Assembly (NCBI GenBank): GCA_964016885.1
Contig: OZ024740.1
Coordinates: 261,206,001-261,270,000, forward strand
Length of the DNA stretch: 64,000 nt
Direction of reading: 5' to 3'
Source of the DNA: Eledone cirrhosa
Taxonomy: Eukaryota
Below are positions 13,325 through 64,000 of the stretch, piece by piece. The stretch's first letter is position 1. Each line of letters opens with the position of its first letter. Both the position numbers and the translations under genes were made by a program. The notes below the pieces were generated by a model. The model did not search any database. It was not told the DNA's origin and was given only the letters and a program-made list of their open reading frames with translations.

Positions 13325-13436
13325 AGAAATGGCTTCTACAGGACTAGAACTGTTTCATTCAAAGGAAATCACCAGGAAAGCTTTCCTGATGATTTCCTTT
13401 GAATGAAACAGTTCTTGTCCTGTAAAAGCCATTTCT
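13325..13436. repeat. Fold-back palindrome with hammerhead-like core
   Basis: 56 bp arms, no spacer, 3 mismatches. Right arm reads CTGATGA-tttc cttt gaat-GAAAC..GTC (core at 13386). Confidence 0.8.
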
Positions 13437-13639
13437 ATATTAAATATTTATACTCTGCTATGTATTGAGTACCTTATTTACTGTGGTTAACCCTGATTGA
13501 ACTCAGGAGATACACACACACACATATATATATATATACATGCGTGTGTGTGTGTCACTGTTTTTAATTTCCCAGTAATCCCCTTCGTTCCCTTTACACA
13601 CACATACATTCACACAAACACACACACAGGTTGTGTGAT

Positions 13640-14278
13640 GGATGGATGGACAGAAGTCGCTCAAATTGATATACATGTGAATGGAGTTCCATTGAAGCAG
13701 GTAGAGAATTTCAATTATCATGAGTGATGGAATGCAGGAGCCTGTGCTGTAATGCACCAGCTTCTGCATTCAGTAATCAGAAGGAAGATGGGAGTAAAAG
13801 CTAAACTTGCTGTCTTTCTGGTATTCCTGCCAACCCTTACCTATGGTCATGAATCTTGAGTAATGACTGAAAGAATACAATTGCAAATACAAGGGGCCGA
13901 TATGGGGTTCCTCCAAAGGGTCTTTGGAGTAACTTTAGTTGATAAAGTGCATAGTTCGGAGATAGGAGAGTCACTCCAGGTAGAGCCGCTACTTCTCCGG
14001 TTCAAGAGTTCACATCTCAGATACTATGGACATGTGGTTAGAATGTCTCAGGAAAGAATCACTGGACAGATTTTACAGGCAAAACCAACCGGCAAGAGAC
14101 CCAGAGGTAGACCCTGAGCAAGATAGTTGGATAACATCCATGAGCTTGGCTGGTCACGCTTTAAGATCCAGCTGGATCAGTTACAGATGTTTGCTACTGA
14201 CAGACTCTCTGGAAGGAGTGTTTGAGGAGGACTTATCCCCTATGACCCTCTCAGAAATAAGTGGGCGAAGAAGAAGAT
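13640..14278 (+). mobile_element. RTE LINE 3' part (Expander-like subfamily)
   Basis: PLKQVENFNY, PTLTYGHES, MGFLQRVFGVTLVDKVHSSEI, LRYYGHVVRM, GKRPRGRP, then a (GAA)n tail. Confidence 0.8.
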
Positions 14279-14394
14279 ATTGTCAATTTACTTTTCAATT
14301 TACAAATATATATGCATAAATATTTGCGTATAATACCAATACGCACACTACATATGCCAACAGAAAACTTACCAAAAGGTGGTTCTTCTGCTAG
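14278..14394 (+). mobile_element. Non-autonomous Helitron 3' end
   Basis: Homologous to 38915-39041; ends in hairpin plus CTAG|T. Confidence 0.6.
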
Positions 14395-59099: not shown

Positions 59100-59345
59100 A
59101 ATAACTTGAACCGTTAAGATCTTATTCCTGAGTATGTCAATATTTATAAAACAAACTTTGTATTTCATCTAATGAGAGCGTACCAAAGTTTTGGTACCCT
59201 TGAAATATATATAATAGAATAAATATGGTTTTATAAATATAGTTTACATTTATTTAATATCATTGAATATTATACTCCAGAAAACTTGTCAAGTGCTTTG
59301 AATCAATTATAAACATTTATATTTGTTGAATTACCAACAAATTAA
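59100..59345 (+). mobile_element. Hammerhead-like cassette (19281 family), mutated core
   Basis: tatttcat-CTAATGA-gagcgtaccaaagttttggtaccctt-GAAA-tatata-TA-atagaata; the downstream aaatatggttttataaatata is shared with 19345. Confidence 0.5.
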
Positions 59346-59579
59346 ATATCCCTTTTGCTTATATATATATAAACGGAAAAAATGAAACGAAATTTCATTT
59401 TCCACTCTTAGTACGGCTGTTACTTAAATATAAGTATGTACACGTACATACATATATGTATACAGATGTACAGTAGTATGTATATATATACATACATGCA
59501 CACATATATATATGTACGTATGGATTCACCGAACATTTATTATAATGCTCGGTGTGTTTGTAAACAAACATCCCGTATT

Positions 59580-62500
59580 ATCCTTGAAAGGTTTATTATA
59601 CTATGATCATTTCAATTACCGGGTTCCGTATGAATCCGGTGATATCATCAGGTATTCGAAATATAACAAAGGAATATATAAAATCCATGGGTCCGAAATC
59701 AGAGACAGAGAGGACGACTGATCAACTAGCTGCTTTCACCTCGGTCAGTCGCCCTTAAGTGATGGCAACTCGGTCTACTAATGACCATCTGGTGAGGGGG
59801 TCGAAGGCTTATAATGTACTACCACCTCTCCGTCAGAGAAGGAAAAAAGAGAAGAAAGAAAGAAAGAAAGAAAGAAAGAAAGAAAGAAAGAAAGAAAAGA
59901 AAGAAAGAAAGAAGAAAAGTCAGAGTAAGGGTCATGCTAGAAGACACCGCGAAAAATGTTATTCTAAAGAACCCATATTTTAACAAAGGCATATATATGG
60001 GTGTGACCGATTGACGCTCTTGTTGGTGAATTGATTTTTTGGGTGGGGCTGTTTGCTTTGATTGTATATTTTTGTGTATTTTATTTATAAGGTTCCTACC
60101 AACTTTCAATTGGTTATATGTATGTATTTCTATCTTCCTGGTTTTTTATTGCCTTATCTATTTTTCTATTATCTATAATCTATATCTGTCTCTATATTGG
60201 TACACCACTAAAACACATGTGTGCACCATCTGTTAATTTGCATTGATACACACTCACTCTCACACTCACTCTCTCACACACACACACACACGCGCACACA
60301 CACACACATACATACATATATACATATATACATACATATAGGTCTATAATCTAAAGGTCTTAAAGTCAACCTGGCAAAGACCAAAGTCCTAGAATGTAGA
60401 AAGAATAACAGCCCAGATTTACTCAGGGTAATGGCCATGCTCAGTGTGCAGGAAATGCAAACTATGGGTACACAAGAGATGTACTGAGATCTGAGGTAGG
60501 CTGGCAAAGAATGCAGGTTTTATATGTGGTTGTTGCACTGATGCAGTCAGTAGCAACAGCCCACAGGATACTAACTCCTTTAAATGCCTAGAGGGCTGGG
60601 TAGAAGTAGTTGATAGTTTCTGTTACCTGGGAGACCAAATTAACAGTGGAGCTGAATGTTCCAAAAGCACCTCAGCTATAATGAGAATGGGATAGAGGAA
60701 GTTCAGGGAGCAACTTCCGCTACTAGCCACAAAAGGTTTTTCCTTCAAAATAAAGGGCAGATTGTGTGATGAGTGTATATGAACAGCAATGTTGTATAGC
60801 AGTGAGACCTGGGCACTGTGTGCAGAGGACCTGCAAAGAATGGAAAGAAATGAAGCTTCCATGCTTCAATGGATGTGTAATAGTAATATACATGAATGAC
60901 AAAGCATAAATGAATTGAGAGAGAAACTGGGTTTATGAGGAGTCAAATCCCATGTGCAGGAGAGGAGAATGTGCTGGTATGGATATGTGATGCGTACAAA
61001 AAATGACAGCTGTATAAAGAGGTGCAGGGGGCTCAAGCTTGATGGAAGCCTTGGTGTACAAAGATTTAGGAAGAATTAGGATGAGGTAATAAAAGCTGAC
61101 CTTGCACAATTGCACTTCTCAAAGGCGATGACATGGGATTGAAATCTCTGGCATTAAAGAGAGTCGGACGCCATGCTTTCACGCATAGAGTTACGGCCGT
61201 TGCCATTCTGAGTTCAAATCCCGCCGAGGTTAACTTTGCCTTTCATCCTTACGGAGTCGATAAAATAAAGTACCAGTAATGTACTGGGTAATTGCTGGCC
61301 TTGTGCCAATAGTAGAAACAATTATAAAGTAATACAGAAGACTCGTCTTCCCATGTGCATGGGTTGAAGCATACATCTTGTATGCACTACCTTTCCCCTC
61401 TCTCTTCCATACGCCTCCAAGTCATAACACTCCACTCATGCCTCAACACCTTACCATCTCACACACACATCTAGATCTACCTCTCCAATCCCCCCCCCCT
61501 CCCAAGTTCCCAGCCCACAATGTAAAGTAGTTGTGATGGCGACAGCGCCTAGCCCACACTGTAAAGTGGCCATGTAGGTGTCATGACAAAGCACCCAGCT
61601 CACACTATAAAATGGTTGTGTAGGTGTCATGCAAAAAGCATACACTGCAAATGTGGTTGGTGTTGGGAAGGGTATCCAGCTGTAGAAACCAAGCGAAAAC
61701 CAGTCCTTTATGAGCAAGACATGATCATCTGACGTGGCGTGTCTCACAATGAGGTGACTCATCTACCCATAGTTTGCATTTGGGACTGAGGATAGCAAAC
61801 AACCATAGCCATTTTTAATCATCCCAAATATTTTCAGATTTACCATCCATTATCAAGGTGAGTTCATAGAGGGACTTCAGAGAGAAACCTGAGAAATGTC
61901 ATAAGTGCTTGTTCAATTTAGTTTTTAATCATATATATATATATATATATATATATATATATATATATATATATATATATATATATATATAAAGAAAAAG
62001 AGATGAAATCGAAATGCAACTGGAGTCTTATTTTTTTTAAAATATATATATTTATTTGGTTCCTTTACCGGTTTCGCAGTTCTTCTGCTTTTCAAAAGGT
62101 GAGTTGAGATGGAGGGTCTGTGGTTTTTTCTCACATCTGTTCACATGTGAGAAAAACCACAGACCCTCCATCTCAACTCACCTTTTGAAAAGCAGAAGAA
62201 CTGCGAAACCGGTAAAGGAACCAAATAAATATATATATATATTTTTTTAAATAAGACTCCAGTTGCATTTTCGATTTCATCTCTTTTTCTTTATACTTTC
62301 ACTCGTGTAGGACACCTCGGTTATTTTTCATTTTGTAAAAAAAACCTCACTTTCTAATATATATATATATATATATATATATATATATATATATACACAC
62401 ACACACACACATATATATATATACATTTAAGTGTGGTGGTTCACAATGGGTAGAACTGGTCATTCCGTATAGCCAACCATGATGTAATATTAGGAAAAGC

Positions 62501-64000
62501 ACTCAACGTTATGCAATTCATCCATCTTTGACGTTAAATCTTGTTGGTGGTGCGAGAATGGAGTTAATTATTATTGAGTAAAATGACAGGAGGCCGGACT
62601 GGTGAAATTCCTTCAAAGATTTATTATAGCAAACACTATGTACATTTCAGTGGTCAAGTTCCAGAAGATCCTGGTGACATCATCTGGTGTTTATTGCATA
62701 ATAGTTATATAATAACGGAATCATTATAACTAATAACTGTCTGGCATACGTTGCTTCACCGGCCAACTGTACTGACTCTTCTGGTCATGTGGGGCATGAG
62801 CCGGTGGACGTTTCATATAATAAAAATAATAGAAATAATAGAAATAATAGAAATATTTCCCAACTGAACATATTTCTCTGTAACCTGATCTCCTTTACCA
62901 CTAGCATGTGTCTAAATAGCAGTGAATTGCAGGGTAGTAGTATTAAGCATACTAAGCATACAACCCCCTGACCAAACCGGTAAGACAAAATTGATGAGAA
63001 TCCACACTCGCAGGTGGTCAGCCAAACAGACAACAACTGGCCCTCTTCATTGCCTTCGAGGCAAAAGCATTTTTCTTTTCTTTTTATAGTCTCTTGGATT
63101 GTGTTTACCATTAGTCCTTTATTATATAACTATTATGAAATAAACACCTGATGATGTCACCGGGATCTTACATAACTTGTCCACTGAAATGTATATAGTG
63201 TTTGCTATATTAAATCTTTGAAGGAATTTCACCAGTCTGGCCTTCTGTCATTTTACTCAATAATATATATATATATATCATCACCATCATCATTTTACGT
63301 CCGCTTTTCCCTGCTTGCAAGGGTTGGATGGGTCCTATTCAGCACAGCAACTCTCCACCGGTCACGGTCCTTCATCATCTCCTCCGTGAGTTTCAGCGAT
63401 CTGAGGTCTGCTCTCACCACATCCGCCCATGTTTTTCGTGGTCTACCTTTACTGTGTCTTCCCTCCACTGGGACTTCCTGGCACTTCTTCACCCATTGGT
63501 CATCCTCCATGCACATCACATGTCCACACCATCTCAGCCGTCTCTCCTTCACACCACAACTTATCCCTCTTATACCCAGTTTCTTTCTCATCTCATGCTT
63601 GGTCGTTCATGCACATTGACATTTCACATCCAACGGAGCAAACTTGCTTCATTTCTCTCCAGCCGTCACATATCTTCTGCAGTTGCTGCCCATGTCTGAC
63701 TACCATTCAACATCACGCATCTCACACAGGCATCATATAACCGTCCTTTCATACGCAGGGAGAAACCCTTCTTTGTCAACAGAGGGAGCAGTTCACTAAA
63801 CTTCTTCCAACCCGTCCTTATTCTAGATACTATGGCCTCGGAACAACCCCCTCCCACGCTAATCTGATCACCTAGGTACCAGAAGCTATAGCACCCATCT
63901 GCATTGGAAAAATGAGTCTATCACTGCGATTACTACTGTCAACTTTCCCTGTACATCTACTGCATACGTAGTTTTCCCTACCTGTTAGTTTGCCTGATAT
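59580..64000 (+). repeat. Segmental duplication, copy 2 (runs off window)
   Basis: Matches 52039 onward, with an offset of 7541 at the junction rising to 7581 through microsatellite length differences. Confidence 0.97.

Follow-up and report, generated by a model that had tools for sequence, protein, structure and literature searches.

Endonuclease-bearing (EN+) Penelope-like elements (PLEs) are inserted as units comprising (i) a pseudo-long terminal repeat (pLTR), (ii) an adjacent inverted and 5'-truncated copy, and (iii) an optional tail of 30-40 bp, with a bias toward (TA)n, as outlined in the relevant sections of PMC8557442 and PMC3846280; head-to-head PLE palindromes are also described in the latter, with self-priming on an antisense template as the proposed origin. 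According to parts of PMC4209133, the pLTRs carry minimal hammerhead ribozymes (min-HHRs) with a palindromic helix III, including a U3-A8 variant, and dual copies located ~100-700 bp apart on opposite strands are ascribed to truncated PLEs; the PLE promoter is placed in the pLTR in the pertinent section of PMC2377424. The anole PLE protein, a predicted dimer, cuts both strands of AT-rich DNA and initiates reverse transcription at two internal positions delimiting the tail, ribozyme cleavage not being required (main text of PMC11167929), and the formation of inverted and tandem PLE structures is called unresolved in sections of PMC8557442 and PMC11167929. Here we analyze palindromic non-coding cassettes in a 64,000-nt stretch of the Eledone cirrhosa genome (the window; positions 261206001-261270000 of contig OZ024740.1 in a 3.0-Gb assembly), which are almost certainly made by PLEs and represent a short form of this known insertion unit.

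The cassettes resemble EN+ PLE units in the head-to-head inverted pLTR, the palindromic junction, the one-sided tail, the TA targets, and the Hydra- or Neptune-type parents. On the other hand, they differ in being a limit form devoid of open reading frames (ORFs) and present in thousands of copies, with tails of ~55-145 nt, an inner end at the likely capped start, and a strict pairing of one proximal and one distal outer end. Head-to-head pLTRs, one-sided tails, (TA)n targeting, and opposite-strand hammerhead pairs are already published; the new part is probably the mechanistic detail of PLE insertion, and a literature search of mostly openly readable main texts found no paper tying the apex to a capped start or stating the proximal-plus-distal rule.

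The window is repeat-dense, with remnants of PLE, RTE-like, and Helitron types. Self-BLAST of the window recovers all six palindromes listed in the original prediction (E-values 4e-44 to 2e-161; Table 1), labelled here A (30939), B (54404), C (48242), D (13325), E (51554), and F (54988); the arms of F are separated by their own upstream sequence (55139-55533). The cassettes had been presented as unrelated to one another, which stands for six families and not for seven, because the copies at 61988-62295 and 62569-63265 sit inside a tandem duplication (52039-56419 = 59580-64000, 98.7% identity). This duplication comprises at least 4.4 kb with a period of ~7.55 kb, runs off the window, and corresponds to either a true duplication or an uncollapsed haplotype. 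The direct contact with (TA)n that had been claimed is found at 10 of the 12 outer ends, where (TA)4 or longer lies within 15 nt (window background, 6.5%), but not at the D cassette, both ends of which adjoin GA/CA tracts. The one-sided extension of one arm is present as described, and no target-site duplication is discernible within the TA tracts.

Pattern searches return thousands of exact copies of cassette sequence genome-wide, including 7,402 copies of the B tail, a sequence with which two DNA similarity searches gave no match. In addition, the apex joints, including a TATC insert at 31112, are present in public contig sets, which may include the window's own sample and in which, among the pieces listed, none spans a whole cassette. 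On account of these copies and joints, the assembly artefact envisaged in the original prediction is set aside. Long inverted repeats flanked by TA would also suit miniature inverted-repeat transposable elements (MITEs), DNA transposons with TA target duplications; such an origin, or an artefactual one, is extremely unlikely given the same apex joints, the one-sided tail, the variable junctions, and arms contiguous with reverse transcriptase (RT) frames, rather than a fixed interior framed by symmetric terminal inverted repeats.

Elsewhere in the genome, the arms of A, B, and E join PLE RT/GIY-YIG frames without interruption, which supports the first of the two origins originally envisaged, abortive inverted PLE ends. 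At locus L151, a direct pLTR of 437 bp flanks an 808-codon open frame, and the A arm and tail make up the 3' 250 nt of this repeat; Pfam and PDB searches with this frame gave no match, and its Atlas neighbours bear the GIY-YIG, RVT_1, and HTH_animal families. At L315, the leader and tail of E continue into a 712-codon frame. Both parent frames contain DKT and an RW motif (RWI/RWR), and the Hydra linker CxCx5C reads CNCRNRADC in L315 and CNCPIKNKC in L030 and is mutated in L151. The Hydra clade is marked by DKT, an RW(K)-like motif, the CxCx5C linker, and a GIY-YIG domain at the C terminus (section 11 of PMC8557442), and by these sequence motifs the parents of A and E are assigned as Hydra-type PLEs. 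Regarding B, L312 and L314 display, in order, an inverted B arm, the RT, the linker CGRSNCGTC, GIY-YIG, the 3' untranslated region (UTR), and a tailed B arm; judging by the linker (CX2-5CxxC), which is common to Nematis too, and by the C-terminal GIY-YIG endonuclease with YIGQT in L314, the B parent is classed as a Neptune-type PLE. The pattern for B running into an ORF matched mostly another PLE family. In 1 of 18 loci (L393), a broken Hydra-like endonuclease frame ends where the upstream sequence of F starts, and an old Hydra-type PLE is the probable parent of F, judging by this one locus. No linked ORF was found for D in 40 loci or for C in 50 loci; these parents may have been missed because the searches reach the best 20-40 loci each, with 1.5-kb flanks.

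The PLE frames at 44410-48140 were considered as the parent of C and ruled out, as they have their own 72-bp repeat (43840-43911 = 48071-48142). This broken PLE (43840-48142, minus strand) comprises a C-terminal GIY-YIG, an Asn-rich stretch, an insertion of a short interspersed nuclear element (SINE), and the 72-bp terminal repeat, with related remnants at 10463-11814 and 19781-21786.

The inner end of the arms clusters at one base in four families (A, B, D, and E). Since apex counts from queries containing the apex are biased, samples chosen by the tail alone were used instead; 24 of 30 loci are head-to-head for A and 14 of 30 for B, and an arm begins between -4 and +14 relative to one site in 18 of 30 loci for A and 20 of 30 for B, the A sample including the window's own locus and two of the B loci being duplicates. 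The original prediction had linked a recurrent apex to an element class of its own. The apex does recur, but not by cassette copying: the junction strings are distinct in 39 of 42 cases in A, 22 of 30 in E, and 13 of 25 in B, where 11 of 25 share one perfect palindrome. The recurrent apex is a likely transcription start and, as the junction sequences differ, not the mark of a copied cassette. In family C the apex is scattered, from -664 to +30 (21 of 30 loci).

Several sequence features suggest that the clustered site is the capped transcription start of the PLE RNA, which we consider likely. TATAAAA or TATAAAT lies exactly 30 nt before the site in upstream-extended copies of B and D, and the site reads TCATAT in A and TTAGTTT in E, which we take to be initiator-like. 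The predicted first base follows the bar in C|ATATG (A), T|AGTTT (E), C|AGATG (B), and C|GGCTT (D). Reverse transcription of a cap leaves an extra G. Among the first 100 non-genomic cases listed for each family, the letter preceding the site is G45/T44/A11 in A (4,298 matches), G58/C23/A19 in E (2,919 matches), G47/T33/A20 in B (928 matches), and G64/A20/T16 in D (630 matches), in tallies made by hand in which both arms of one cassette may count; the first 100 cases at an internal control site of A give G0/A91/T9. The excess of preceding G has binomial P values of 2e-6 to 8e-18 against base composition. The extra G is not an allele, because the element continues upstream in none of the 16 A and none of the 19 E loci with a leading G. 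Furthermore, an extra C after one arm is combined with an extra G before the other in 4 of 18 non-overlapping junctions. We also rejected the idea that a second, upstream ribozyme makes the fixed 5' end, since the parent copies inspected have no core upstream.

The outer ends are also set at defined sites. In A, one arm ends at a proximal site (~+177) and the other at a distal site (~+260) in 40 of 42 head-to-head pairs (60 loci); the same pairing is found in 17 of 25 B pairs, 5 of the remainder being spurious low-complexity cases, and in 17 of 30 E pairs. The tail is the difference between the proximal and distal outer ends, and the C units have two end sites as well, 34 and 34 at TA.

In our view, the cassettes probably consist of leader (pLTR) fragments from several PLE families, paired head-to-head, devoid of ORFs, and made anew at each insertion by the PLE RT. 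The transcript would start in the pLTR, with the internal start sites lying 75-260 nt from the cap. The PLE protein would nick both strands of a TA tract, and one cDNA would be primed from each nick, at two internal sites near the 5' end of the capped PLE RNA; each cDNA would reach the cap, read as an extra C, or stop early, and the two cDNA 3' ends would then be joined by microhomology or template jumping and filled in, leading to a hairpin with one tail. With a 3' set of start sites, the same reaction would produce ordinary long insertions with an inverted 5' pLTR, L312 and L314 representing the case of a long distal cDNA, while the hairpins are probably dead ends. Family C lacks a fixed apex, as the model predicts, because a head-to-tail 548-nt unit has no fixed 5' end. 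In L1 twin priming, two primers on opposite target strands also lead to an inverted insertion; in the cassette model, by contrast, synthesis begins at two fixed internal sites, and one stretch can be copied by both cDNAs. The anole PLE is closer to the model, with two RT start sites bounding the tail and both target strands cut, whereas the main text of PMC11167929 neither explains inverted copies nor maps the inner end to the cap.

The two arms of one cassette share alleles. Excluding the arm ends and a low-complexity stretch, the arm mismatch is 0.0086 within versus 0.040 between cassettes in A (n = 49; 0/1000 permutations), with 87 shared minor alleles and 5 differences in 9 columns, and 0.011 versus 0.022 in B (n = 24; 0/1000 permutations); with those regions kept, no concordance is seen for B or E. 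Shared alleles would be expected from a single-cDNA fold-back, proposed in a section of PMC3846280, in which one cDNA or antisense RNA snaps back and copies itself, and the many apexes that are perfect palindromes at self-complementary ends, such as the identical B junctions, point the same way. Fold-back is nevertheless unlikely given (i) the four junctions in which one arm bears an extra C and the other an extra G, (ii) full proximal arms joined to distal arms that stop within the tail, (iii) a second outer end set at the proximal site and not at random, and (iv) an extra base that is G on the sense strand and therefore points to a capped sense template.

A number of observations weigh against two-site priming on a capped RNA as the source of the cassettes. 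Arm concordance fits fold-back or gene conversion equally well, and in E it is weak (0.033 within versus 0.038 between, n = 24; 28/1000 permutations). Family E also has three outer ends, at ~75, 112, and 160, the one near +112 being the additional one. With respect to the start site, A and E have no TATA at -30, and the control site is mostly one subfamily allele and hence an imperfect control. The first D site, AGTCGG, failed, with G in 2 of 12 cases, and the later site, 4 nt downstream, was picked post hoc; the first B site, ATG, carries a genomic G in upstream copies, and the site was shifted by 2 nt afterwards. Finally, the opposite arm could template many of the D G's, and likewise the G in 3 of the 8 G-led B loci, the other 5 being unambiguous.

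Hammerheads had been reported in each arm of four cassettes, which holds strictly for A and B and loosely for five families, C being without a core. An Rfam scan of the window gave no hammerhead match at E<=5, only generic hairpin and microRNA (miRNA) matches below the gathering scores, and the hammerheads were recovered instead by inspection of motifs and stems. Family A displays a complete type-I fold with palindromic stem III on both arms; the D cores read CTGGTGA on one arm and have a broken first stem-I pair on the other. The type-I core with stems I-III is found in A, B, D, and F, E shows a variant, and C has none. Among genome loci matching the stem patterns, the core is preserved as CTGATGA/GAAA/TA in 91 of 101 A loci, as TTGAAAA in 35 of 38 B loci, and in 13 of 17 D and 11 of 16 F loci; the count for E, CAGAAGA in 37 of 38 loci, is circular because the queries already held this core. 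CAGAAGA represents a change of U4 to A and is also present in the coding parent (L315 leader). The RNA of D and E probably begins with the first base of stem I, so that cleavage would take off the cap. Single hammerheads of further pLTR families occur at 19280-19344 (+), 43722 (+), 52110 (-), and 59651 (-), the last three being relatives of F with compensatory stem-I changes. The cassettes share palindromic helix III, the U3-A8 core, and opposite-strand pairs with the min-HHRs treated in parts of PMC4209133, where the hairpin anatomy of the cassettes is not described; the CAGAAGA core of E is a putative ribozyme.

A self-propagating ambisense-ribozyme element, viroid- or retrozyme-like and replicating as rod-like or circular RNA, was the other origin envisaged, and the hammerhead on each strand, intact in both arms of A and B, together with thousands of near-identical copies, would agree with it. 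This cycle is very unlikely because the duplex is predicted to abolish the ribozyme fold: in whole-cassette RNA of A and B, the predicted stem-I pairing probability is 0.0 (minimum free energy, -281 and -242.5 kcal/mol), and the hammerhead is a predicted minor conformer even for the isolated leader (stem I probability 0.01-0.05). Moreover, a single ribozyme per strand would not allow monomer release, no head-to-tail arrays of hammerhead cassettes are seen, nearly every locus has a different junction, the arms are PLE leaders reaching beyond the cleavage site, and the TATA is left behind in two families. The hammerheads, predicted to be masked in read-through RNA, appear to be passengers of the PLE leader.

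Non-LTR retrozymes consist of units repeated directly in tandem, each with a hammerhead (parts of PMC7229834 and bioRxiv 10.64898/2026.07.22.740005). The cassettes are similarly ORF-less, hammerhead-bearing, and PLE-related, and family C also forms a head-to-tail unit; in contrast, hammerheads are carried here by inverted pairs or single copies and the tandem family C is without one, so that neither shows the hammerhead-bearing tandem units of non-LTR retrozymes. The C unit (L399:2541-3088, 548 nt) is ORF-less, arranged head-to-tail, and inserted as head-to-head multimers. Its predicted fold is better than that of shuffles (z -3.98), with no Rfam match and no hammerhead core on either strand of the 548 nt, and a non-autonomous PLE with an unknown processing step is a candidate identity.

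Such units raise the alternative that promoter-bearing solo pLTRs, or the hairpins by way of an internal promoter, are the source of short capped leader RNAs, mobilized in trans by PLE proteins, and that some families (D and C) thereby multiply with no full parent. D copies carry CCAAT/TATA upstream with no linked ORF in the 40 loci, C follows the same two-end rule, and short copies far exceed long ones, a length of about 100 nt or more upstream being reached by only 6 of 30 loci in A and 7 of 30 in B. As a general account, this is quite unlikely, considering that coding parents whose leaders are near-identical exist for A, B, and E and that those of D and C may simply lie beyond the loci searched; in any case, it uses the same chemistry as the two-primer explanation. 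It is conceivable, though doubtful, that D and C are self-renewing non-coding retroelements with no coding parent, both dependent on the PLE two-primer reaction, D from a short capped RNA beginning with the hammerhead and C as a circular or multimeric RNA through an undescribed self-cleaving motif.

Table 1. Cassettes, hammerhead motifs, and associated features of the window (arm identities from self-BLAST).
Feature	Position	Strand	Remarks
Family D hairpin	13325-13436	.	Arms ~56 nt, 94.6% identity; tail to ~13490; hammerhead fold 13380-13430 (+), damaged in this copy
Family E parent, 5'-truncated	26050-28699	-	RT/EN remnants, 3' UTR, then E arm 26159-26050
Family A hairpin	30939-31276	.	Inverted arm 30939-31103, direct arm 31112-31276; 97.0% identity, E-value 2e-161; Hydra-type PLE leader (full copy L151)
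Type-I hammerhead, A inverted arm	30984-31054	-	Motif and stems as on direct arm
Type-I hammerhead, A direct arm	31161-31231	+	CTGATGA core, palindromic stem III, ATGCGCAT
Family A one-sided tail	31277-31358	+	Between proximal and distal ends; in L151 leads into 5' UTR and ORF
Family C hairpin and tail	48156-48528	.	Hairpin 48242-48528, 97.6% identity; tail 48156-48241; fragment of ORF-less 548-nt head-to-tail unit; variable apex; no hammerhead core
Family E hairpin and tail	51554-51790	.	Hairpin 51554-51709, 93.6% identity; Hydra-type PLE leader (L315); extra C at 51631 ends inverted arm
CAGAAGA hammerhead variant, E	51634-51683		GAAA mutated on one arm
Family B hairpin and tail	54404-54770	.	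Hairpin 54404-54710, 92.9% identity; 3' pLTR part of Neptune-type PLE (L304, L312, L314)
U3-A8 hammerheads, B	54596-54633, 54478-54515	+, -	Core TTGAAAA on both arms
Family F asymmetric head-to-head pair	54843-55684	.	Tail 54843-54987, inverted arm 54988-55138, direct arm 55534-55684; 92.1% identity; probable Hydra-type parent
Hammerhead, F direct arm	55561-55622		One F arm intact, other CAGATGA
Tandem duplicate of 52039-56419	59580-64000	+	Second B and F cassettes (61988-62355, 62569-63265)

In TA tracts, unrelated PLE leaders are often nested in one another. The flanks of L010, L025, L028, and L336 hold further hairpin families of the same build in the same TA tracts, one of them with a GAAACGGC arm. 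The A flank 30894-30935 recurs inverted at 31360-31401; two insertions into the TA tract by the tail end of a different PLE family (frame 29946-30572) probably account for this, and a similar pattern is found at L200. Outside the cassettes, the window contains (i) a broken Helitron at 34545-38490 (+), with Helitron_like_N and PIF1 matches; (ii) RT-bearing remnants of long interspersed nuclear elements at 40249-42382 (+) and 55704-57884 (-), presumably RTE-like, with a PHD-like C-terminal part; and (iii) a 190-bp SINE-like repeat in many copies. An E copy elsewhere in the genome has beside it an open frame of 519 codons (L310:6445-8001, minus strand) that is unrelated to PLEs and probably represents a host exon encoding helical repeats.

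For genome annotation, the thousands of perfect hairpins of 100-350 bp should be masked as PLE and not as miRNA, MITE, or viroid-like elements; read-through of a cassette is predicted to yield long double-stranded RNA. If the apex is a capped start and the two priming sites are fixed, the insertion products would point to a sense, capped, and uncleaved RNA as the template and to coordinated priming on both strands, testable in an existing in vitro system, and the cassettes would map the start sites of PLEs without RNA data.

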